NCBI GenBank assembly: GCA_903860135.1
Contig: CAIOPG010000009.1
Span: 175,805-239,804 of the forward strand
Length of the DNA: 64,000 bases
Source of the DNA: Candidatus Omnitrophota bacterium
GTDB taxonomy: Bacteria; Omnitrophota; Gorgyraeia; Zapsychrales; Fredricksoniimonadaceae
Direction: 5' to 3'
Position 1 is the stretch's first letter. The number at the start of each line of letters is the position of its first letter. The position numbers and the translations under genes were made by a program. This document shows positions 4,646-47,435 of the stretch, one piece after another. Under the pieces are notes generated by a model. The model searched no databases and was not told the origin of the DNA. It worked only from the letters and a program-made list of their open reading frames with translations.

Positions 4646-6069
4646 AGCACAGCCCTCGCCTCATGCCAGGGGGTCGCCTGCTCATAAGCGTAGGCGGCAC
4701 GCAGAAGTTTTTCTTCGGCGAAAGGTCCTGCCATCAACTGCAAGCCGATGGGCAGCTTCGCACGATCAAATCCGCAAGGGATCGAGATCGCCGGGATACC
4801 CGCCATATTGGCCGGTATGGTGAAAATATCAGAAAGGTACATGGAAACCGGATCATTCATTTTCTCGCCGATACCAAATGCCGTCGTCGGTGACGTCGGT
4901 GAAAGGATCACATCACACACACCAAAAGCCCGGTCAAAGTCCTGTTTGATCAATGTCCGGACCTTTTGCGCCCGTAAATAATAAGCGTCATAATATCCCG
5001 AAGAGAGCACATACGTCCCGAGCATGATACGCCGTTTCGCCTCGGGGCCAAAACCTTCCCCGCGCGTCTGCGCGTACATATCAATTAGACGCCCCTGCCG
5101 CGCAACCGCAGGGAATGAACGGCGCCCAAATTGAACCCCGTCGAACCGGGCCAGATTGGAGCTGGCTTCGGCTGTTGCCACAATGTAATACGTCGCCACG
5201 GCATATTCGGTGTGCGGCAAAGAAATATCGACGATTTCGGCTCCCTTGGCCTTAAAAACACGCACCGCCTCCTCAACAGCCGCCAAAACCTCCGGCTGTA
5301 TCCCCGGTATAAAATATTCACGCGGGATCCCGATCCTCAGCCCCTTCACCTCTGAGCCAAGGGCTTTCGTATAATCGGGCACAGAAACATTGATCGATGT
5401 GGAATCTTTAGGATCAAAGCCCGCAATAATATTCAACAGCATGGCGCAATCCCTGACATCCTTGGTCAAAGGGCCGATCTGATCGAGCGATGAACCAAAG
5501 GCGATCAGCCCATAACGTGACACACGCCCATAGGTCGGTTTCAAGCCAACCACACCGCAGAAAGATGCCGGTTGACGGATAGAGCCACCGGTGTCACTGC
5601 CCAAAGCCCATACGGCCTGCCCCGCCGCGACAGCCGCCGCCGAGCCACCCGATGACCCCCCAGGAACGCGCTGAAGATCCCAGGGATTTCTCGAAGGGCC
5701 ATAAGCTGATGTTTCACACGAAGAACCAAACGCAAATTCATCCATATTGGCACTGCCTACAATAACGCCGCCCGTGGCCTTTATTTTGGCCATGACCGTG
5801 GCATCGTAGGGCGGACGAAACCCCTCGAGTATCCTGGAGGCACATGTGACAAGATTCCCGTTAACGCAAATATTGTCTTTAACGGCCATCGGTAACGGGC
5901 ATATACCGCCGGTGGTCTGGATGGTATCGGCAAAACGGATATACGCTTGCGTCGACGGATTAACGGCCTTGGCGCGCGCCAAAACCACTGCGGTGATCCG
6001 GGCAGCTGAAAGACGCCCGTCGTTCAAACGATCCATCAACGCATGGGCTGTAAGCGAGAAAAGATTCAT
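4642..6069 (-). CDS. gatA: Glu-tRNA(Gln) amidotransferase subunit A
   Basis: 475 aa with amidase signature [14 protein letters not shown]. Four-nt overlaps with gatB and gatC. Confidence 0.95.
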
Positions 6070-28830: not shown

Positions 28831-29210
28831 TTAGCCCCCGCGCATGAAGGATTAGTTCCGGCCACAACTGGACTTGCTAATGTGACCGTGACCGTCAGAC
28901 CAGATCCAATACTGCCCACACATGTCCCGCTACCACAGGAATACGACACCCCGTCAGCAATAATATGTGTAGCCAACGCCGTATTGATAGCATTGATATC
29001 AGCAGCTACCAGATTAGTGCCGTTGTTATACAAACGATACTGGGCATTGGCGGCATGAATGATACTCAAATTATCCACAACAGAACGCCCGCGCGTGCGA
29101 TCAATCGTCTTAATAAACTGCGGGATAGCCATACCAACCAATATTCCGGAAATGACAAAAATAACCATTAACTCAATCATGGTAAAAGCTTCATTATAAA
29201 GTTTAGTCAT
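28821..29210 (-). CDS. Type IV pilin, family A paralog 1 (C-terminal Cys loop)
   Basis: Inferred start MTKLYNEA|FTMIELMVIFV. The ATG overlaps the stop of paralog A2 (ATGA). Motifs IIHAANA, AINTAL and a C-terminal C..G.NCP. Confidence 0.7.
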   Translation of the reverse strand: MTKLYNEAFTMIELMVIFVISGILVGMAIPQFIKTIDRTRGRSVVDNLSIIHAANAQYRLYNNGTNLVAADINAINTALATHIIADGVSYSCGSGTCVGSIGSGLTVTVTLASPVVAGTNPSCAGANCP

Positions 29211-29581
29211 GGACAACTTGTTCCTGTACATGTCGCAACGCCCGAACTTGTGTTCGGAGTTGTTACAACAAATCCCGTACCCGTAGCCGTGCATTCCGTA
29301 CCTGAAGAACAAGAATATGTGGCACCATCAGCCTTAATATTTAACCCGAGAGCCGTATTTATGGCAGCCACATCTCCAGCCGTAGTATTAGCTCCAGAAC
29401 GTGAAAGAAAGAGGGCATTAGCCGCATGAATAATCGAAATGTTCGTCATGGCCGAACGCGCCTTTGACCGTAAAATAGTTTTTGAAAACTGCGGAACAGC
29501 AAATGCGGCAATGATTGAAATGATGCTCAAAACAACAATAAGTTCAATCAGCGTAAACCCGCTACGCATAAAATACCTCAT
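29207..29581 (-). CDS. Type IV pilin, family A paralog 2
   Basis: MRYFMRSG|FTLIELIVVL leader. Same IIHAANA/AINTAL motifs and a C-terminal CTGTSCP. Confidence 0.7.
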   Translation of the reverse strand: MRYFMRSGFTLIELIVVLSIISIIAAFAVPQFSKTILRSKARSAMTNISIIHAANALFLSRSGANTTAGDVAAINTALGLNIKADGATYSCSSGTECTATGTGFVVTTPNTSSGVATCTGTSCP

Positions 29582-29979
29582 GGGCAACTTGAACCAGAAC
29601 AAGATGGATTTGAGTCACTTAACGCAGTAGCCAACGTGAGCGTCTCTGTAAACCCTGAACCTGTCGCAAGGCATGTCCCTGAATCAGTACAGGAATAAGT
29701 CACTCCATTCGACGTGATCTTTAACTCCAGAGCCGTATTAATGGCCACTAAATTTCCGGCTGTAGATGCATTAACATTTGAATTATTATTACGTAAACGA
29801 TAATACCCATTAGCCGCGTGGATCAGATTAAGATTGGCGATCCCTGCACGTGCATAGGCACGCTTGGTACTTTTTGAAAGAAGCGTGGTCGCAAAAATTG
29901 CTAAAATACCAACAAGCGCCAACACAATTATCATTTCAATGAGCGTAAAAGCCTGACGCATAGTTGGTCTCATGCGCAC
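29578..29979 (-). CDS. Type IV pilin, family A paralog 3
   Basis: MRMRPTMRQA|FTLIEMIIVL. LIHAANG, AINTAL and a C-terminal CSGSSCP. Confidence 0.7.
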   Translation of the reverse strand: MRMRPTMRQAFTLIEMIIVLALVGILAIFATTLLSKSTKRAYARAGIANLNLIHAANGYYRLRNNNSNVNASTAGNLVAINTALELKITSNGVTYSCTDSGTCLATGSGFTETLTLATALSDSNPSCSGSSCP

Positions 29980-30389
29980 GGCGTATTAGGACAAATTTTC
30001 TTAAGTGTGTCCGGACATGAACCACACGAAAAAGCACCCGCTGCAGACACACTAACAGTATATGAACCTGTCGCTGGCTGAACAGCGGATTTTATCGTCA
30101 ATGAAACAGCACCCGTTGATGTATTGCACACAGGTGCCGCAAAATTCGTCGGCGTAACCGTTACATCCAGATTGGCACAAGCGGCACTGGTATCATAGGT
30201 GCTTTTTTCAAGATTATACCTTATCTGAGCCGCGTTGAGCGTGTTAAGGACATTAATCCCTTCAGTAAAGATCGTTTGATCCTTCGCTCCTACCATACGC
30301 GGTACAGCCAACGACGCCAATACACCAATGATAACAATCACGACGATAATTTCAATTAATGTAAAAGCAGACGATCGTATTATATTCAT
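29970..30389 (-). CDS. Type IV pilin (distinct, 5 Cys)
   Basis: MNIIRSSA|FTLIEIIVVIVIIGVLA. C-terminal CGSCP...CPNTPCA. Confidence 0.7.
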   Translation of the reverse strand: MNIIRSSAFTLIEIIVVIVIIGVLASLAVPRMVGAKDQTIFTEGINVLNTLNAAQIRYNLEKSTYDTSAACANLDVTVTPTNFAAPVCNTSTGAVSLTIKSAVQPATGSYTVSVSAAGAFSCGSCPDTLKKICPNTPCA

Positions 30390-30401
30390 ACCATTCCAAA
30401 A

Positions 30402-30818
30402 CTAATTCTTCAATGTTGAAAAAATCCCACCCTTTATCTTTGTAACAGTTCCCGCAGGGGCATTCAGCCTAAGCGTGATCGTATCAGCAACTCCTGCACC
30501 ACCTTTTAAAGTAGCTGTCGCACCGCAAGCAGATGCATTCGCACATTCAGTAGCGGTAAATGAATACGTAAAATTAGTTGATGCCGTTGGAAATGAATAG
30601 CCCGATATTGCTGTTATATTATTACATGCCGTATAATCTTCACTGTTCTGAATATAACATTCCTGGACTTTGCGCATCAAAACGCCAAGCTGCATATAAG
30701 CCTCTGCCGCTTTGGCAATATTCACCTGAGCGCTAAGACGCGGCAAAGCTACTGCGGCCAAAACACCAATGATGATAACAACAATGATGATCTCGATTAG
30801 TGTAAAGCCTTTTTTCAT
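30402..30818 (-). CDS. Type IV major pilin, family B paralog 1
   Basis: MKKG|FTLIEIIIVVIIIGVLAAVALP. Near-identical to the next two genes. Ends KGGIFSTLKN. Confidence 0.8.
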   Translation of the reverse strand: MKKGFTLIEIIIVVIIIGVLAAVALPRLSAQVNIAKAAEAYMQLGVLMRKVQECYIQNSEDYTACNNITAISGYSFPTASTNFTYSFTATECANASACGATATLKGGAGVADTITLRLNAPAGTVTKIKGGIFSTLKN

Positions 30819-30836
30819 TACTTACCCCATTTCCAA

Positions 30837-31256
30837 TTAATTCTTTAATGTAGAGAAAATACCGCCCTTGGTTTTTGTAACAGTTCCCGCAGGGGCATTC
30901 AGGGTAAGCGTGATCGTATCAGCAACTCCTGCACCACCTTTTAAAGTAGCTGTCGCACCGCAAGCAGATGCATTCGCACATTCAGTAGCGGTAAATGAAT
31001 AGGTAAAATTACTTGATGCCGTTGGAAATGAATAGCCCGATATTGCTGTTACATTATTACATGCCGTATAATCTTCACTGTTCTGAATATAACATTCCTG
31101 GACTTTGCGCATCAAAACACCAAGCTGCATATAAGCCTCTGCCGCTTTGGCAATATTCACCTGAGCGCTAAGACGCGGCAGTGCTACTGCGGCCAAAACA
31201 CCAATGATGATAACAACAATGATGATCTCGATTAGTGTAAAACCCTTTTTTTTCAT
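30837..31256 (-). CDS. Type IV major pilin, family B paralog 2
   Basis: MKKKG|FTLIE... Differs from paralog 1 at only a few residues. Confidence 0.8.
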   Translation of the reverse strand: MKKKGFTLIEIIIVVIIIGVLAAVALPRLSAQVNIAKAAEAYMQLGVLMRKVQECYIQNSEDYTACNNVTAISGYSFPTASSNFTYSFTATECANASACGATATLKGGAGVADTITLTLNAPAGTVTKTKGGIFSTLKN

Positions 31257-31313
31257 ACATTTCCTTTTTTAGTGTTTTATTAGTATGTTCCTGCATTAAT
31301 AATATTTTTGGAA

Positions 31314-31730
31314 TTAATTCTTCAAAGTTGAAAAAATACCACCCTTTGTTTTTGTAACGGTTCCCGCAGGGGCATTCAGCGTAAGCGTGATAACATCCGC
31401 CGCCGCACCACCTTTTAAAGTAGCTGTCGCACCGCAAGCAGATGCATTCGCACATTCAGTAGCGGTAAATGCATATGTAAAATTACTCGATCCAGTTGGA
31501 AAGGAATAACCAGATATCGCTGTTACATTATTGCATGCCGCATAATCTTCACTATTCTGAACATAACATTCTTGGACTTTGCGCATCAAAACACCAAGCT
31601 GCATATAAGCCTCTGCCGCTTTGGCAATATTCACCTGAGCGCTAAGACGCGGCAACGCTACTGCGGCCAAAACACCGATAATGATAACAACAATGATGAT
31701 CTCGATTAGTGTAAAACCTTTTTTTTTCAT
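31314..31730 (-). CDS. Type IV major pilin, family B paralog 3
   Basis: MKKKG|FTLIE... Near-identical again. Preceded by a conserved 57-nt upstream region. Confidence 0.8.
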   Translation of the reverse strand: MKKKGFTLIEIIIVVIIIGVLAAVALPRLSAQVNIAKAAEAYMQLGVLMRKVQECYVQNSEDYAACNNVTAISGYSFPTGSSNFTYAFTATECANASACGATATLKGGAAADVITLTLNAPAGTVTKTKGGIFSTLKN

Positions 31731-31787
31731 ACATTTCCTTTTTTAGTGTTTTATTAATATCTTCCTGAATTAAAAATATTTTTAAAA

Positions 31788-32207
31788 TTAATTCTTCAAA
31801 GTTGAGAAAATACCCCCCTTTGTTTTTGTAATCGAACCAGCTGAAATATCCAGCTTAAGAGTGATAACATCCGCAGCGTTCGCATTGGTTCCACTGAATG
31901 AAGCTTGACCTACACAATTATTAGCATCTGGACACAGAGAAGAATTAAAATTATATGTAAAATTAGGAGTTACTGGAAATGTATAACCTGATAGAGCTGT
32001 CACCTCGTTGCATCCCGCCATGATGTCACCATTTTGAATATAACATTCCTGGACTTTGCGCATCAGAACACCCAGTTGCCTATAGGCCTCAACGGCTTTT
32101 GTAGTATTAACCTGATTCGTAACACGAGGCATAGCTATCGCTGCTAAGACTCCAATAATTATAACAACAATTATTACTTCAATCAATGTAAACCCATTTT
32201 TATACAC
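31788..32207 (-). CDS. Type IV major pilin, family B paralog 4 (diverged; GTG start)
   Basis: The ORF-track M is a GTG. The more likely start is the second GTG, giving leader (M)YKNG|FTLIEVIIVVIIIGVLAA. Same C-terminus KTKGGIFSTLKN. Confidence 0.65.
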   Translation of the reverse strand: MYKNGFTLIEVIIVVIIIGVLAAIAMPRVTNQVNTTKAVEAYRQLGVLMRKVQECYIQNGDIMAGCNEVTALSGYTFPVTPNFTYNFNSSLCPDANNCVGQASFSGTNANAADVITLKLDISAGSITKTKGGIFSTLKN

Positions 32208-32281
32208 GTATATCCTACCCACATGTTATCTGTATACAAATATGACATATTTAAATAAATAAAGCGAATATAAATAATTAA

Positions 32282-33508
32282 TTATCCTCCGGTAGATAAA
32301 GAAAGTATAGGTAGAAACATCGCGATAACAATTAGACCTATTACACCACCCATGATAACAAGCATAACGGGTTCAATAAGAATGCTGAATCGCTTCAAAA
32401 ATTCTTCAACATTAGCTTTATAATATATGGCGACATTATTCAACATCTTGCCAAGCTCACCGGTTTCCTCGCCAACACGGATCATCTGCACCGTCATCGA
32501 AGGGAAAAATCCACTTCTTTCCATTGGATCTGCCAAAAGCTGCCCCTCACGTACGGCTTCACGCACATTTCTTATAACTTCCGCACAAACCACATTATCC
32601 ACCAGTCTCTCCGATATCTCCAAAGAATAAAGAATGGGGACACCGCTTTCCATAAGGGTGGACATTTGAGATGTAAACTTCTCAATTACAATTAATTTTA
32701 TCATACCACCGAAAATAGGAACTTTAAAAAGAAAAGTCTCAAATTGCTTTCTTCCAAGAGGTGTTTTAATGTAATTCATGAAAAGAAAAATGCTTCCGGC
32801 CCCTCCAGCAATAAGTATAAAAAATCTCTCTTTCAATAATTTGAAAATTGACATCATTATGACCGTGATAGTCGGGAGCTTGATATCCATATCAGAAAAA
32901 ATACGTTCAAATGTAGGCCCGACAAAAAGAGCGAAAAACAAAACAGCTCCGATACAAATAAAACAAAGAACCATCGGATAAACAAGGGCTCCTATAATAG
33001 TAGACTTGAACTTGGCTGTATCCTCCATATATTGTGTCAACTTGTTGAGAACTTTCGGTAATGTACCAGATGCTTCACCAACCTCAATAAGACTGACCCA
33101 AAAAGCAGTAAACACCTTGGGATATTTTGAAATAGCGCTACTGAAAGTACGACCCTGTTCAACATCTGTGACTACCGCCTCAATGATGACGGTTAACCCA
33201 CGACTTTCCAGCTGAGAGCTGATGATCTTGAGCGATCGCATTAACAAAACACCTGCTCCCATCATCGCAGAAAGTTGACGCGCAAAAGAAACAACATCAT
33301 TTAATGAAATATTATTGTGCGAAAACACCCGCTTCTTTGCAACTGACGTCACAGGCTGTTGATTCTCAACAAACTGTTTTACAGCGGTTACAAAAAGCCC
33401 TTTTTGCTGTGCAAACTTAACAGCCTGCTGATCATTAATGGACTCTACAACCTCATTAAATACATGCCCTGAATTATCTTTAGCAGTAACAAGAAATTTG
33501 GCCATCAA
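32282..33508 (-). CDS. pilC: Type IV pilus / T2SS platform protein (PilC/GspF family, two T2SSF domains)
   Basis: 408 aa. Duplicated GspF-like halves, each followed by TM helices. Confidence 0.85.
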   Translation of the reverse strand: MMAKFLVTAKDNSGHVFNEVVESINDQQAVKFAQQKGLFVTAVKQFVENQQPVTSVAKKRVFSHNNISLNDVVSFARQLSAMMGAGVLLMRSLKIISSQLESRGLTVIIEAVVTDVEQGRTFSSAISKYPKVFTAFWVSLIEVGEASGTLPKVLNKLTQYMEDTAKFKSTIIGALVYPMVLCFICIGAVLFFALFVGPTFERIFSDMDIKLPTITVIMMSIFKLLKERFFILIAGGAGSIFLFMNYIKTPLGRKQFETFLFKVPIFGGMIKLIVIEKFTSQMSTLMESGVPILYSLEISERLVDNVVCAEVIRNVREAVREGQLLADPMERSGFFPSMTVQMIRVGEETGELGKMLNNVAIYYKANVEEFLKRFSILIEPVMLVIMGGVIGLIVIAMFLPILSLSTGG

Positions 33509-39511: not shown

Positions 39512-39841
39512 TCAGTAACTAACATCCATCGTGAATGCCCTTGTTGCCCCTGGTCCTCCGCCGGCTACTTGGGTATAATGAACCGAATATGTTGTTCCGT
39601 CAACATATTCAGAGAAATCCGTAAGTGTTGTCGAACCACCGGCGTAAATCTCGCGTGCCCACCATAAAGCTTTTTTGGCAATAAGTTCCGCCTGAAGATG
39701 CTTTCTTTCACGTTCGGAAATAAGTGCCTGTGAATAATTTCGCGATAACACACCTAAAACCAAGATTGACATAAGCATAACAGCCGCAATAACTGTCAGT
39801 AAAATTACCCCCCGCTCACTACCGTATTCTCTTCTAATCAT
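39512..39841 (-). CDS. PilX/GspK-like minor pilin
   Basis: Inferred start MIRREYGSERG|VILLTVIAAVMLM. The ORF-track start is a 37-aa upstream extension overlapping the next gene. Confidence 0.45.
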   Translation of the reverse strand: MIRREYGSERGVILLTVIAAVMLMSILVLGVLSRNYSQALISERERKHLQAELIAKKALWWAREIYAGGSTTLTDFSEYVDGTTYSVHYTQVAGGGPGATRAFTMDVSY

Positions 39842-40073
39842 GAATTCCCTCCTCAAGATAACTCTGACAAAGTGGACAACGCACAACCTCAGTCTTTCCG
39901 TTACTGATAATGATATGGCTGCAATAGGGGCATTGCCTAACAATACCCGCACTTGATGCCTCCCTGTTTACGCCATCATCCACAACGGCATATTTAAACC
40001 ACATAAACCCAAAAAAAATAATCATGACAGAAAGACAAAGACTTACGCCCAAGGCAATATCTATCGTGATCAT
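39834..40073 (-). CDS. Small membrane protein with C-terminal CPxC...CPLC zinc-ribbon
   Basis: 79 aa. N-terminal TM (LGVSLCLSVMIIFFGFMWF), then CPYCSHII-(12 aa)-CPLCQSY. Overlaps both neighbours by 4-8 nt. Confidence 0.5.
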   Translation of the reverse strand: MITIDIALGVSLCLSVMIIFFGFMWFKYAVVDDGVNREASSAGIVRQCPYCSHIIISNGKTEVVRCPLCQSYLEEGIHD

Positions 40074-40498
40074 GGCAACCTCAAACGAAGATCTAATGGT
40101 GCTACAGGAACATCCTCAACAACTGCCACAGAAGGTTCATCGCGATCCTCAGGAACAACCCTTACACCGGAAAAATGAAATATATCCTTATCCTCCGGTG
40201 GCATACTTCTATAAAAAGATTCAGGTTTCTCTGCCTGCAAGGAGCGCAACCACCCTCCTGATAAGTATAATGGTACGGTACTATCATTAATCTTTTCTTC
40301 AACTTGCAGGACTGAAACTTCATGACGCGAAGGAATAACTTCCTGCGGGCTTAAAATATTGCCCAAGAAGACAACATCGAGTTTGTACGTGTTGTTAACA
40401 GCTCCTTTAAATGAAAAGATCACAAAAGTTAAAGCGATGGCGTGCATGATGCCCGCCGTTAATACCCCTATCATCGGAGAATGCCACTTCACTAGCAT
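40070..40498 (-). CDS. TonB/TolA-like N-terminal anchor protein lacking a recognisable C-terminal domain
   Basis: 142 aa. TM (IGVLTAGIMHAIALTFVIF) with a conserved His. Acidic/Pro-rich C-terminus (PEDRDEPSVAVVEDVPVAPLDL). Start coincides with the exbD stop. Confidence 0.35.
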   Translation of the reverse strand: MLVKWHSPMIGVLTAGIMHAIALTFVIFSFKGAVNNTYKLDVVFLGNILSPQEVIPSRHEVSVLQVEEKINDSTVPLYLSGGWLRSLQAEKPESFYRSMPPEDKDIFHFSGVRVVPEDRDEPSVAVVEDVPVAPLDLRLRLP

Positions 40499-40896
40499 TA
40501 CTTCTCACGATCCGTAGCAATATTAATATGCTCGATCCCCATGCTGCGGGCAAGATTCAGGATGTCCACAACACGACCAACCGATGCCCGGTGATCCGCC
40601 TTGATCAAGATGGCTCTGGCATTGCCGCCAGGAAATGCTAAAAACTCTTTAAGTTCACCCAGCGTGATCAAATGATTATTCACATACACAACATTCTCGC
40701 CCGTCACAATGATCGTCAAACTTGACGGAGAGGCTATGTCGCTTGTCACTCCTTTGGGCAAGGCGATCTTTAAGAACGATGATTTTGAAATAAATAAAAT
40801 AAACGCTATAAAACCCAATAGAATAAATAATACATTCAAAAAAGGAAAGAAATTAAATTTTGGCACACATAATTTCAAATGCCTACGGAAATCCAT
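40498..40896 (-). CDS. exbD: ExbD/TolR-family biopolymer transport protein
   Basis: 132 aa. N-terminal TM and periplasmic ExbD fold (LTIIVTGENVVYVNNHLITLGEL, ILIKADHRASVGRVVDIL). Confidence 0.75.
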   Translation of the reverse strand: MDFRRHLKLCVPKFNFFPFLNVLFILLGFIAFILFISKSSFLKIALPKGVTSDIASPSSLTIIVTGENVVYVNNHLITLGELKEFLAFPGGNARAILIKADHRASVGRVVDILNLARSMGIEHINIATDREK

Positions 40897-40899
40897 GCC

Positions 40900-41568
40900 C
40901 TAAGCCCCTCCGGCTAAAGGAACATTAATAATCTGCGTCATTTCACGCACAAGCGTCGAAGCAACCTGCTCCATCTGCAGAACAGTACCCTCGATCACCT
41001 TAAGAAAATACCGGTGCGCGATCATGGCAAAGATCCCGACAAGGGAAGCCGCCGCTGTTGTAATAAGCGCTTGCCCAAGACCAGCCGTAACATCCATCAA
41101 ACTGGCAGGATTTACAGCTACCGCACGAAGCTGTATTGTATGCAATAACCCACACAAACCAACCACCGTCCCCAGAAGGCCGATCAAAGGCACTAATTGA
41201 GCCATAAATACTAAAAGATCCAACCCTTTTTCCATCGCGCGTACCTCATACCTGGCCGCATCTTCCATCGCCACTTGTATCTCTGGTGCCGATTGACCAA
41301 AACTCAACAATCCTGCTTTTAAAATTCGTGCCATCGAAGAATCTGCGGCATCACACGCTGAAAGGGCACCCATGGTATTATTGTTTTGAATAAAACCGAT
41401 CACTTGAATAGAAAGGACAGCAATACCTTCGCGCACTTCTCCTAGAAACAAGAATCTTTCAATGACCAAAGCCGTAACACTGACGGAACATATCAAAACA
41501 GGAACCATGACAGGACCACCTGTCAATAATAATCGCCATGCGCCAATCCCGGTTACAGCATCGATCAT
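40900..41568 (-). CDS. exbB: MotA/TolQ/ExbB-family proton channel
   Basis: 222 aa with 3 TM. Conserved C-terminal LVGIFAMIAHRYF. Confidence 0.8.
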   Translation of the reverse strand: MIDAVTGIGAWRLLLTGGPVMVPVLICSVSVTALVIERFLFLGEVREGIAVLSIQVIGFIQNNNTMGALSACDAADSSMARILKAGLLSFGQSAPEIQVAMEDAARYEVRAMEKGLDLLVFMAQLVPLIGLLGTVVGLCGLLHTIQLRAVAVNPASLMDVTAGLGQALITTAAASLVGIFAMIAHRYFLKVIEGTVLQMEQVASTLVREMTQIINVPLAGGA

Positions 41569-41586
41569 TTAGGCATCCTTCGGCTA

Positions 41587-44070
41587 TTATTTCTTCCCGC
41601 TGCGTTCTTGGATCAACTCAATCCGTTCATTGGCAAACTTACTCTCGTCAACCTTCAAGTCAACAACCTTCCTGTACGCAGTAATCGCCTTTTCTAATTC
41701 ATTATTGTTTTCAAAAATTCTAGCGATACGCAAATATGCTTTTATAACCCATGGGATTTCTTTCGAATAAATATACGGTATCTTGAAATAAGCCTCTAGT
41801 GCCTTGTCAGATTCATTCAACACCTCGTAAACATCTCCCACAGAAAATTGAATCCCGGCACTGGTTACCTGGCTTTCACCTTTATCCGCTTCGATAGCCT
41901 CCGCGTATACAAACAACTCTTCGTTAAATTTCTTCTCCCGACGGTATATCTGCGCTATCTTCATTAAAGCATCACGTTTATACTGCGGACTTGTCGCTAT
42001 AATACCATGGTATGTTTCAACCGCCTTGTCAGTATCCAGTTCCTTAACAAATATACCAGCAATAGCAATCTTTGCCTTGGGGTAAAGTAATGGATCAATT
42101 TGGGGATCAACCTGCCTAAAATACGCGAGAGCTTTTTCAAAGTTCTCCAAAGACAAATACGCACGACCCAATTCAAAACAAAGAAGACCTTGCTTGACCG
42201 TCTCGGGCAAATCAAACAAGCCCTTCGTATAGAGTTCTACGGCCACCTGATAGAGACCTTCTGTCATATTGTACTGCCCCAGCCACAGAACACACTCGAT
42301 CTCCGCTTCGGTGTGAGGGTAACGATGCACGATATCTTTAAAACGTGCAAGTGCTTCCTTCGTGTCACCCATAGCATCATATGTCTTGGCAAGCCCTACA
42401 TACGCATTCTGGAGTATCTGCTGTTCATCAGGATAAAGCCTAAGCACATCATTAAAGATAACTATCGCCCTGTCAAACTGCTTCAAATTAAAATGCGTCA
42501 TCGCCAACACATAACGGGCTTCCGCCACAAACTGAACCGGAACAACAGGGTCAGAAATAAAAGAGGTCAGTATTTCAACAGCCGTCGCCCATTCCTTTCT
42601 ACGGAAATACGCCAAACCAAGATAATAACGGGATTCAGAAATATACTTACTGCCGGGATAATTAGCTTTTAATGCCTGAAGTGCCAAAACAGCAGCATCA
42701 ATCTTGCCGGATTTAAGAAGCGCAATCCCTAAATAATATTGGACATGATCTTCATAAGGCGTGTCCGGCATTTCATGAAGGATCTTGTCATAGACATCGA
42801 TCGCCTTGTCCATAACGCCAGCCTCCTGATAGGCATCCGCAATCTGGCTATACGCACTCACTTTTATTATCTTGTTATCCGACTTGTCAGCTACCAGCTG
42901 AAACATAGCGACAGCCTTGTCAATATCACCGCTCTTGGAATAAGTCCAAGCTAAACCGAACCTAGCTTTCTCGATCATTTTATCCCGTCCTGCCGCACCG
43001 CTAGAAATAGCAATGATCATCTCATAATCTTTGATAGCGGCCACATAATCATTAACAAGATACCAGGCATTGGCACGCCCCAAATAAGTATCGGCTATTT
43101 TAAGACTCGCCGGAAACCGCGCGATAACTTCCGAATAAATTGAGGCCGCTTCAACATATTTCTCCTGGGCTATAAAAAGACTCGCCTTGGCCAAAAGAAC
43201 ATCTTCTTCGGATACCTTTGCCGCTTTAACCGCAAATTGCGCTTCATCGAACGTCTTTAACGCCTCCACATATTTCTTAAGTTTGATCTGACACCAGCCC
43301 GTCCCGATCAGCGATGCGGCCATCGAAGATGGCGCCGTTGTCAATGATCTGGCTTTCTGATAAGCATCCGAGGCCTTGTCATATTGTTCCAGATTATACA
43401 AAGCCTCGGCCACATTGAATTGGGCTTCATAAAGACGGGTCGAACCGGGATGCCCTGAGATATAATTATTGAAAGCCACAATAGCCGCTTCATACTGAAC
43501 AGCATTGTAGTCACACTCTCCCAGCTTGAACGCGGCATCATCGGACAAGTTGTTAGCAGGAAACTTATCGATCAAGGCCTGGAATATCTTTTTGGCCGAC
43601 ACATAATCTTCCTTCTGAAAATAAGACCAGGCGAGCGAATAATATGCCTGGGGCGCATACAGGGATGCCGGAAAAGCATCAATAACTTGACGGTATTTCT
43701 CTTGGGCTTTGGGAATATCGCCACCCTTGAAATATGTTTCTCCCAACCAGAAAAGAGAGGCATCCTTGTATTCAGGCAACGCTACCAGATCCTTAAAAAC
43801 ATTAAAGGCCTGCACATACTGTTGCTTAAAGAAATAACTTTGCCCTTCGAGCAATCTCGCTTCAACAACTTTTGTGGTTTGCGGGAATTCAGTTAGAAGT
43901 TGATTGACGTAACGCAGAGAAACATCATAAAAACCATCTTCAAATGCGCGCTGGGCTACAATGAAAAGATCTTTCTCATTAGAATCAACAGCAAAAGATG
44001 GTGTCGCAACGATGAGCAACGAAATGCCCATGATGTACAGGATACATTGTAGATTTTTTCTTATTTTCAT
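41587..44070 (-). CDS. Large secreted/periplasmic TPR-repeat protein (about 18 TPRs)
   Basis: 827 aa. Signal peptide MKIRKNLQCILYIMGISLLIVATPSFA. TPR consensus (W..LG..Y...G.Y..A) repeats throughout. Confidence 0.8.
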   Translation of the reverse strand: MKIRKNLQCILYIMGISLLIVATPSFAVDSNEKDLFIVAQRAFEDGFYDVSLRYVNQLLTEFPQTTKVVEARLLEGQSYFFKQQYVQAFNVFKDLVALPEYKDASLFWLGETYFKGGDIPKAQEKYRQVIDAFPASLYAPQAYYSLAWSYFQKEDYVSAKKIFQALIDKFPANNLSDDAAFKLGECDYNAVQYEAAIVAFNNYISGHPGSTRLYEAQFNVAEALYNLEQYDKASDAYQKARSLTTAPSSMAASLIGTGWCQIKLKKYVEALKTFDEAQFAVKAAKVSEEDVLLAKASLFIAQEKYVEAASIYSEVIARFPASLKIADTYLGRANAWYLVNDYVAAIKDYEMIIAISSGAAGRDKMIEKARFGLAWTYSKSGDIDKAVAMFQLVADKSDNKIIKVSAYSQIADAYQEAGVMDKAIDVYDKILHEMPDTPYEDHVQYYLGIALLKSGKIDAAVLALQALKANYPGSKYISESRYYLGLAYFRRKEWATAVEILTSFISDPVVPVQFVAEARYVLAMTHFNLKQFDRAIVIFNDVLRLYPDEQQILQNAYVGLAKTYDAMGDTKEALARFKDIVHRYPHTEAEIECVLWLGQYNMTEGLYQVAVELYTKGLFDLPETVKQGLLCFELGRAYLSLENFEKALAYFRQVDPQIDPLLYPKAKIAIAGIFVKELDTDKAVETYHGIIATSPQYKRDALMKIAQIYRREKKFNEELFVYAEAIEADKGESQVTSAGIQFSVGDVYEVLNESDKALEAYFKIPYIYSKEIPWVIKAYLRIARIFENNNELEKAITAYRKVVDLKVDESKFANERIELIQERSGKK

Positions 44071-46920: not shown

Positions 46921-46964
46921 ATAATTATTATAATCCTTAAAGACCGAAGAAGCACGTAATAGAT

Positions 46965-46998
46965 ATAACCCCTGCCATCATCACTGACGACAGGGGTT
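46965..46998 (-). terminator. Possible hairpin terminator downstream of the Lys-rich gene / upstream of uvrA (weak)
   Basis: ACCCCTG-(16 nt)-CAGGGGT inverted repeat. The trailing region on the minus strand is only moderately U-rich. Confidence 0.3.
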
Positions 46999-47063
46999 AT
47001 ACGTTGATGACTAGCACATGTCGAATTCAAGCAAATTCAAGCCACAGATTTGATCTGTAAACC

Positions 47064-47348
47064 TTACTTCTTGCCCTTCTTCGCCACGACCTTCTTCACA
47101 GCCTTTTTCACAGCCTTCTTCTTCTTTCCGCCCTTCACCATGGCAGCAGAAGAAATATCGCCCTGCTTATCGATAAAATAGAGGAAACCAGATTCCTTCT
47201 TAATACCGACCTTGGCAACCTTCTTGGGCTTGCCGCCCTTCTTGTCGCCGCGCGCCATCGCCGCAGAAGAAACATCGCCATCCTTATCAATAAAATAAAG
47301 GAAACCCTTTTCTTTCTTGACGCCAACTTTAGCAACTTTCTTAGCCAT
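47064..47348 (-). CDS. Small lysine-rich basic protein with internal tandem ~40-aa repeat (putative nucleic-acid-binding)
   Basis: 94 aa. Repeat 1 KKVAKVGVKKEKGFLYFIDKDGDVSSAAMARGDKKGGKP and repeat 2 KKVAKVGIKKESGFLYFIDKQGDISSAAMVKGGKKKK, then a KAVKKAVKKVVAKKGKK tail. Strong SD AAGGGGGTGA upstream. Confidence 0.7.
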   Translation of the reverse strand: MAKKVAKVGVKKEKGFLYFIDKDGDVSSAAMARGDKKGGKPKKVAKVGIKKESGFLYFIDKQGDISSAAMVKGGKKKKAVKKAVKKVVAKKGKK

Positions 47349-47435
47349 TATTATTCACCCCCTTTCATCGTGTAACTTTTTTCCATTTGAATCGGCGATA
47401 TCCCATTAACTCCGCCGATGATATTCATCTTGAAA

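Follow-up and report, generated by a model that had tools for sequence, protein, structure and literature searches.

What kind of protein is encoded by the short lysine-rich open reading frame (ORF) between a NadX-like aspartate dehydrogenase gene and uvrA in the genome of a Candidatus Omnitrophota bacterium? The gene lies on the minus strand of a 64,000-nucleotide (nt) stretch of contig CAIOPG010000009.1 (positions 175,805 to 239,804; this whole stretch is referred to as the window), and its product of 94 amino acids (aa), MAKKVAKVGVKKEKGFLYFIDKDGDVSSAAMARGDKKGGKPKKVAKVGIKKESGFLYFIDKQGDISSAAMVKGGKKKKAVKKAVKKVVAKKGKK, contains 29 Lys, one Arg and eight Asp and Glu residues, with an isoelectric point (pI) of 10.3. 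The gene is genuine and subject to unusually strong purifying selection; its product, which represents a family not described before, is tentatively considered to bind nucleic acid and to be a small cytoplasmic protein that is probably abundant. Small basic nucleic-acid binders are a familiar kind of protein; the family and its predicted fold are new.

The original prediction, drawn from the letters of the window and their ORFs, had described a Lys-rich 94-aa protein built from a tandem repeat of ~40 aa with a duplicated, hydrophobic β-hairpin-like core, preceded by a strong Shine-Dalgarno (SD) sequence, located between nadX and uvrA and not assignable to a characterized family. All of these points are borne out below, the β hairpin by structure prediction and the coordinates and length of the ORF exactly; the ORF is conserved, and the repeat is present in several bacterial phyla and in archaea.

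Conservation of the gene

A word-indexed search returns 2,515 relatives at E<=0.01; the best 120 of these come from Omnitrophota metagenome-assembled genomes (MAGs), are 74-93% identical in local BLASTP alignment and vary in length from 73 to 105 aa around a constant core. Among Omnitrophota orthologues, the ratio of nonsynonymous to synonymous substitution (dN/dS) is ~0.09 over 268 pairs, dS being saturated. Mean identity to the window copy in 14 syntenic Omnitrophota genomes (13 for PanC) is 68% for this protein, 63% for UvrA, 49% for PanC and 45% for NadX. The gene order dapB...aminotransferase-folK-panC-nadX-gene-uvrA-TPR-MotA/ExbB is kept in other Omnitrophota, and the family gene is a conserved single copy at a fixed position across the genomes of this phylum that were examined; no paralogue of the protein is encoded in the 64-kb window. 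The neighboring uvrA is adjacent in 28 Omnitrophota loci, with the order reversed in a second lineage (loci L044 and L046); ssb and uvrA, which are neighbors in E. coli, provide a parallel that serves only as a lead.

Repeats and predicted fold

The two repeats of the window protein (Table 1) are identical at 26 of 32 residues, with a period of 39 aa. Their DNA matches at 74 of 96 bases, third codon positions agreeing in 18 of 32 cases; since the differences fall mostly at third codon positions, the repeats represent an old duplication kept by protein-level selection rather than a recent DNA repeat. The variation in repeat number raised by the original prediction does not occur among close orthologues: every full-length sequence of the best 120 relatives has two repeats, with two sequences truncated after repeat 1. 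Family-wide, exactly two are present in 134 of 149 representatives, while the few larger proteins carry four (in two cases), five or seven; hence the repeat pair is the module of the family. A 42-column single-repeat profile retrieves only further two-repeat proteins of 73-77 aa and no new architectures. A separate case is P0189, a protein of 1139 aa from the search of representatives, in which the hairpin motif also accounts for the match to the family profile; the repeat that it carries at least eight times is another one (...GAEVGVD.TTGQ.YYVDGSGNWQP...), and the protein probably belongs to a separate repeat family, perhaps of the phage tail-fibre type.

AlphaFold2 gives a confident monomer model from a diverse alignment of 108 sequences (predicted template modeling score, pTM, 0.75); with 26 close orthologues the model is unusable (predicted local distance difference test, pLDDT, 51.5). 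The core is predicted to be all-β with no helix, and the hydrophobic GFLYFIDKDGD segment is predicted as a β hairpin; each 39-aa repeat would contribute three β-strands, and both repeats together would form one compact, pseudo-symmetric, six-stranded β domain. The pLDDT is low at aa 75-78, the last residues of the 78-aa modeled core, where the C-terminal tail starts. Mean-field direct coupling analysis of 289 sequences (effective number 124) is noisy, and its top pairs link only equivalent positions of both repeats.

Basic residues occupy position 12 of the repeat in 98% of sequences, positions 4, 22, 28 and 33 in 72-79%, and position 7 in 70%, and aromatic residues occupy positions 16, 18 and 19 in at least 94%. 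Gly9, Gly15 and Gly24, together with the acidic positions 13, 21 and 25, look structural. The proposed binding surface would consist of Lys/Arg 4, 7, 12, 22, 28 and 33 and the aromatic triplet 16, 18 and 19 on the central hairpin, and may contact both the phosphate backbone and the bases. The net charge of the two-repeat core is +8.6 on average across the family, with a range of -3 to +21.

A typical member of the family is 73-77 aa long and ends shortly after repeat 2 (consensus MAEKVAKVGIKREKGYLYFIDKQGDVSRAKMARGGKKGGKPEKVAKVGVKKEKGYLYFIDKDGDISRAKMARGRK). The window protein departs from this by having Ser in place of Arg28/Arg67, a site occupied by Cys in most of its closest Omnitrophota relatives, and by a 20-residue Lys/Ala/Val tail. 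The KAVKK tail noted in the original prediction is thus present in this protein but is not a feature of the family, being absent or very short in most members. In this Omnitrophota lineage the tail, which would be disordered, may add non-specific electrostatic affinity, by analogy with tails of the H1/Hc1 type.

Family size and distribution

In a set of 1.84 billion representatives from clustering at 50% identity, the profile built on the two-repeat core matches 1,003 clusters at E<=1e-3; a broader profile matches at least 7,987 clusters at 90% identity. A single peptide pattern finds at least 600 matching stretches in GTDB species genomes, and at least 591 relatives are confirmed there by tblastn. 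Bacterial sources include Omnitrophota, Elusimicrobiota, Endomicrobia, Marinimicrobia, Fidelibacterota, Nitrospirota, Ignavibacteria, Myxococcota and Cryomorphaceae, and archaeal sources include Woesearchaeota and Thermoplasmatota; MAGs labeled 'Planctomycetia' are also among the sources, and the Omnitrophota synteny is present in them. Members are named 'hypothetical protein' throughout, barring a few automatic mislabels ('20S proteasome subunit', 'YcgL' and 'DNA-binding phage protein') that derive from sub-threshold matches and were disregarded.

The archaeal loci have archaeal genes as neighbors, among them RadA, Hef, primase and L37ae; with RadA and further genes of archaeal type on these contigs, contamination is unlikely. 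Identity between bacterial and DPANN archaeal members reaches 85%, as between P0348 from Woesearchaeota and P0347 from Elusimicrobia (loci L092-L095), a value exceeding the 53-73% seen among Woesearchaeota members themselves, which suggests repeated transfer between Bacteria and Archaea beside strong constraint.

Fusions, viral copies and gene neighborhoods

Several members join the two repeats to other domains. P0202 combines them with an HNH endonuclease (Pfam E = 1.3e-13), P0171 with a NucS-like PD-(D/E)xK region (a weak match, E = 0.012), and six or more clusters (P0150, P0234, P0291, P0296, P0301 and P0312) carry an N-terminal zinc ribbon with four Cys residues, CPxC...CxxC. Six archaeal clusters (P0136, P0167, P0187, P0205, P0206 and P0245; locus L008, 839-1363) have a conserved C-terminal domain of ~90 aa after the two repeats, and nothing in Pfam, NCBIfam or PDB matches this domain of the P0136 type; its motif is ...KP.VKYLVYE...G.YG..L.Y...KF..L..P....R.VN.VPKKY, and the long contig with P0136 has archaeal-type neighbors, among them a Hef helicase/nuclease and a primase.

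Homologues of the family are also found on ten IMG/VR viral contigs. In one of these (L100, 1347-6700) the order is DNA primase (phrog_35358, E = 8e-36), family gene, two small genes and DNA helicase (phrog_16, E = 2e-73), and the family gene overlaps the primase stop; in two others (L102 and L105) a VRR-NUC/Holliday-junction-resolvase-like gene lies close by, upstream. On a 1.07-Mb archaeal contig of GCA_900089805.1 (L089/L090), P0312 (5001-5354) overlaps by 11 nt the start of a gene for an NYN-domain protein, a PIN-like RNase (5344-5844), with L37ae a few genes upstream and a thioredoxin gene downstream.

Relation to known proteins

The window protein has no significant match in Pfam or NCBIfam, its only NCBIfam match falling far below the cut-off, and none among PDB sequences by phmmer. 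PADLOC has no match for the small proteins, the window protein included, PHROGs gives only a weak sub-threshold match to a family of unknown function (phrog_9154, E = 1e-4), BFVD gives none, and tblastn against GenBank phages finds none; a literature search yielded no description of such a protein. The 108 members of the diverse alignment were also scanned against Pfam, NCBIfam and PDB, and all recurrent matches are sub-threshold. These comprise DotY, DUF5050 and choline-binding repeats in Pfam (the last in 14 of the 108 members, best E 0.009-0.12), BaiB-type acyl-CoA ligases (28 of 108) and PspA/PspC in NCBIfam and, for PDB sequences, YWTD propellers (E = 0.017) together with repeats that bind choline or glucan (E = 0.2). 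Ribosomal_S27 has a sub-threshold match (E 0.013) in only two members. The recurrent matches probably reflect convergent similarity of the hairpin rather than membership, because unrelated enzymes also match the Gly-aromatic-Leu-Tyr-Phe-x-Asp-x-x-Gly motif.

Among the closest known proteins are the small basic β-sheet chromatin proteins of Crenarchaeota, Sso7d/Sac7d and Cren7; these are lysine-rich proteins of 7-10 kDa, all- or mostly-β, whose genes stand alone and are presumed highly expressed. They show that a small β domain can bind DNA by basic and hydrophobic side chains. The SH3-like five-stranded β barrel that defines Sso7d/Cren7 is not found in the window protein.

The original prediction had also called the protein histone-H1/HU-like in its basic character, which holds for composition and not for descent. 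Low-complexity Lys/Ala composition like that of the C-terminal KKKKAVKKAVKKVVAKKGKK is seen in histone H1, chlamydial Hc1-HctB and AlgP tails; however, this likeness is confined to the tail, which is lineage-specific and missing from most of the family, whereas the conserved part of the window protein is a predicted folded β domain. No Hc1, HctB or H1 family in Pfam or NCBIfam matches the window protein at E<=10, none is among the recurrent weak matches of the 108 members, and there is no Pfam match to HU/IHF (Bac_DNA_binding); HU has a helical dimerization body with β arms, while the core of the window protein is predicted to be all-β.

The cold-shock protein CspA binds single-stranded nucleic acid by way of the aromatic and basic side chains of a β surface, and its RNP1 motif, KGFGFI...DDG, resembles the K-G-aromatic-x-aromatic-I and following Asp/Gly turn of the family, a comparison made by eye. 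Neither a hidden Markov model match to CSD, S1 or SSB nor the topology of an oligonucleotide/oligosaccharide-binding (OB) fold is found. There is likewise no ribosomal protein family match for the window protein, and the neighbors in the loci examined are metabolic or repair genes. YWTD (LDL-receptor class B) blades and choline-binding repeats share the hairpin aromatic-Y-[FW]-x-D...G through marginal profile matches, and the blade period of ~40 aa is comparable to the 39-aa repeat; however, both families are extracellular with many repeats, while the window protein has two, is strongly basic and lacks a signal peptide. No significant profile match or six-blade propeller supports YWTD membership, and choline- and cell-wall-binding units form arrays of ~20 aa in secreted proteins rather than two 39-aa copies without a signal peptide.

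Proposed function of the family and alternative explanations

Binding of nucleic acid is suggested by the conserved basic and aromatic positions, by the fusions to HNH, NucS-like and zinc-ribbon domains, by the primase/helicase context in phages and by the overlap with the NYN gene. The strong constraint, the signs of high expression and the adjacency of uvrA in two lineages also speak for this reading. DNA is the more likely preferred ligand, with RNA second, because of the nuclease fusions and the phage replication context. No signal peptide is seen by inspection, as the N-terminus MAKKVAKVG... is not hydrophobic, and the protein is presumably cytoplasmic. High expression is probable because of the strong SD and biased codon use: the anti-SD duplex energy of -12.3 kcal/mol is the strongest in the window (mean -4.6 for 57 ORFs of at least 100 aa), AAG serves as 25 of the 29 Lys codons, compared with 58% in the window, and GGG, GTA and GCA are unused. 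The protein may act as an architectural or nucleoid protein, the nucleoid role being plausible, or may assist replication and repair by binding single or double strands. The original prediction had named it a candidate nucleoid-associated or RNA-binding protein, a reasonable proposal to which the HNH, NucS-like and zinc-ribbon fusions and the phage homologues in primase/helicase modules lend indirect support. A bolder version of this reading, considered rather unlikely, would make it the founding member of an unrecognized chromatin/genome-maintenance class with a new six-stranded, internally duplicated β fold: a major DNA-coating or single-strand-binding protein of Omnitrophota, Elusimicrobiota, Marinimicrobia and DPANN archaea, moved repeatedly across domains and borrowed by phages for their replication modules.

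Several observations weigh against the function proposed here. The family has no homology to known nucleic-acid-binding folds in Pfam, NCBIfam or PDB, by sequence and by fold; the core lacks basic character in some members (net charge down to -3); and the central strand is hydrophobic in all five residues, so that it could be an oligomerization interface rather than a surface for base stacking. The informative fusions are single or rare clusters, most fusions being single clusters, and others attach the repeats, as cytoplasmic modules, to transmembrane segments, an OmpA domain or GAF plus RING domains. No partner gene is conserved across phyla in the neighborhoods of 80 genomes, and neighbors differ between bacterial phyla (ClpB, AspRS, KamA, acetate kinase and a large membrane protein). 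The SD and the codon use are also the entire basis for high expression.

Among the other explanations, an RNA-binding protein (ribosome-associated, an RNA chaperone or an RNase partner) whose basic β domain binds structured RNA, not DNA, is a serious rival, though held to be unlikely; it would fit the extreme conservation for a small basic protein, as in ribosomal proteins, the strong SD, the 11-nt overlap of archaeal P0312 with the NYN RNase gene and the L37ae gene a few genes upstream, and the resemblance, by eye only, of K-G-[FY]-L-Y-F-I with its D-x-G turn to cold-shock RNP1 KGFGFI, while the nuclease fusions and phage replication context favor DNA. It is quite improbable that the family serves instead as an adaptor (for proteins, for polyanions or near the membrane) or as a β module that self-assembles, in which the repeat would resemble a β-propeller blade or a choline-binding hairpin and copies would form a larger symmetric assembly or dock on a partner. 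The propeller and choline-binding matches that bring this to mind are all below significance, the hairpin motif that they share also matches the unrelated BaiB ligases and is thus probably convergent, choline-binding units are 20 aa long and occur in secreted proteins, whereas the window protein has only two 39-aa units and no signal peptide, the monomer model is already confident, and lectin-like propellers do not usually carry so strong a positive charge. The reading that the ORF is spurious or decaying, and its repeat a by-product of DNA repetition, has in its favor small size and a low-complexity tail and nothing else; its probability is negligible, as it is refuted by the conservation data, namely the low dN/dS with saturated dS, the third-position differences between repeats and the thousands of orthologues with conserved synteny, and by the confident AlphaFold2 fold.

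Organization of the locus

The features of the gene are collected in Table 1. Upstream lies the gene for an Asp_DH_C/NAD_binding_3 protein, the NadX-like aspartate dehydrogenase, and downstream that for UvrA; the gene stands alone with an 18-base-pair (bp) hairpin behind it. The minus-strand RNA of 46930-47070 folds with -50.3 kcal/mol (z = -5.2 against shuffles); the 18-bp stem-loop has no clean U-tract, and a simple terminator scan calls neither it nor the smaller hairpins nearby. Two such hairpins lie in the 3' untranslated region between the stop codon and the stem-loop (47003-47063, minus strand). Rfam has no match around the gene.

Table 1. Features of the gene for the two-repeat protein and of its flanks in the window.
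Feature	Coordinates	Strand	Basis and remarks
Coding sequence of the 94-aa basic two-repeat protein	47064..47348	-	ORF list and sequence; ATG start, stop codon 47064-47066
SD sequence AAAGGGGGTGA	47355..47365	-	6 nt upstream of ATG; anti-SD duplex energy -12.3 kcal/mol
Repeat 1, aa 3-34, KKVAKVGVKKEKGFLYFIDKDGDVSSAAMARG	47247..47342	-	Self-comparison; AlphaFold2 strands predicted at aa 3-6, 16-20 and 26-30
Gly/Lys-rich linker, aa 35-41, DKKGGKP	47226..47246	-	Alignments; positions variable in family
Repeat 2, aa 42-73, KKVAKVGIKKESGFLYFIDKQGDISSAAMVKG	47130..47225	-	Self-comparison; AlphaFold2 strands predicted at aa 42-45, 55-59 and 65-69
Lys/Ala/Val-rich C-terminal tail, aa 74-94, GKKKKAVKKAVKKVVAKKGKK	47067..47129	-	Lineage-specific; length varies among orthologues
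Terminator-like 18-bp stem-loop, G-U pairs included	46963..47002	-	Starts 61 nt past the stop codon; separates gene from uvrA

Two other gene groups were observed on the minus strand of the window. Downstream of uvrA (39512-44070) an 827-aa TPR protein is followed by MotA/ExbB- and ExbD-sized ORFs, an order that is kept in other Omnitrophota (loci L001 and L003) and resembles a Tol/Ton-type cluster. At 29207-32222, seven genes for type IV pilin-like proteins of 131-144 aa form a tandem array, all with the GFTLIE N-terminal methylation motif (N_methyl, E = 8e-7). Six of these run head-to-tail (29578-32222), and three copies (30402-30818, 30837-31256 and 31314-31730) are nearly identical; the ORF listed at 29207-29602 shares 25 nt with the next, and since an internal Met begins its pilin leader, the true start is probably downstream. 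The array adjoins a PilC/T2SSF gene at 32282-33508 (E = 2e-55).

Significance

Small abundant DNA- and RNA-binding proteins organize genomes, and almost nothing is known of them in the large uncultured phyla. If the binding of nucleic acid proposed here is true, the known nucleoid or replication accessory proteins would gain a new fold with this family; proteins of 75-94 residues with a confident model are also easy to synthesize and test. The family may further serve as a marker by which gene exchange can be traced between uncultured lineages that occur together.
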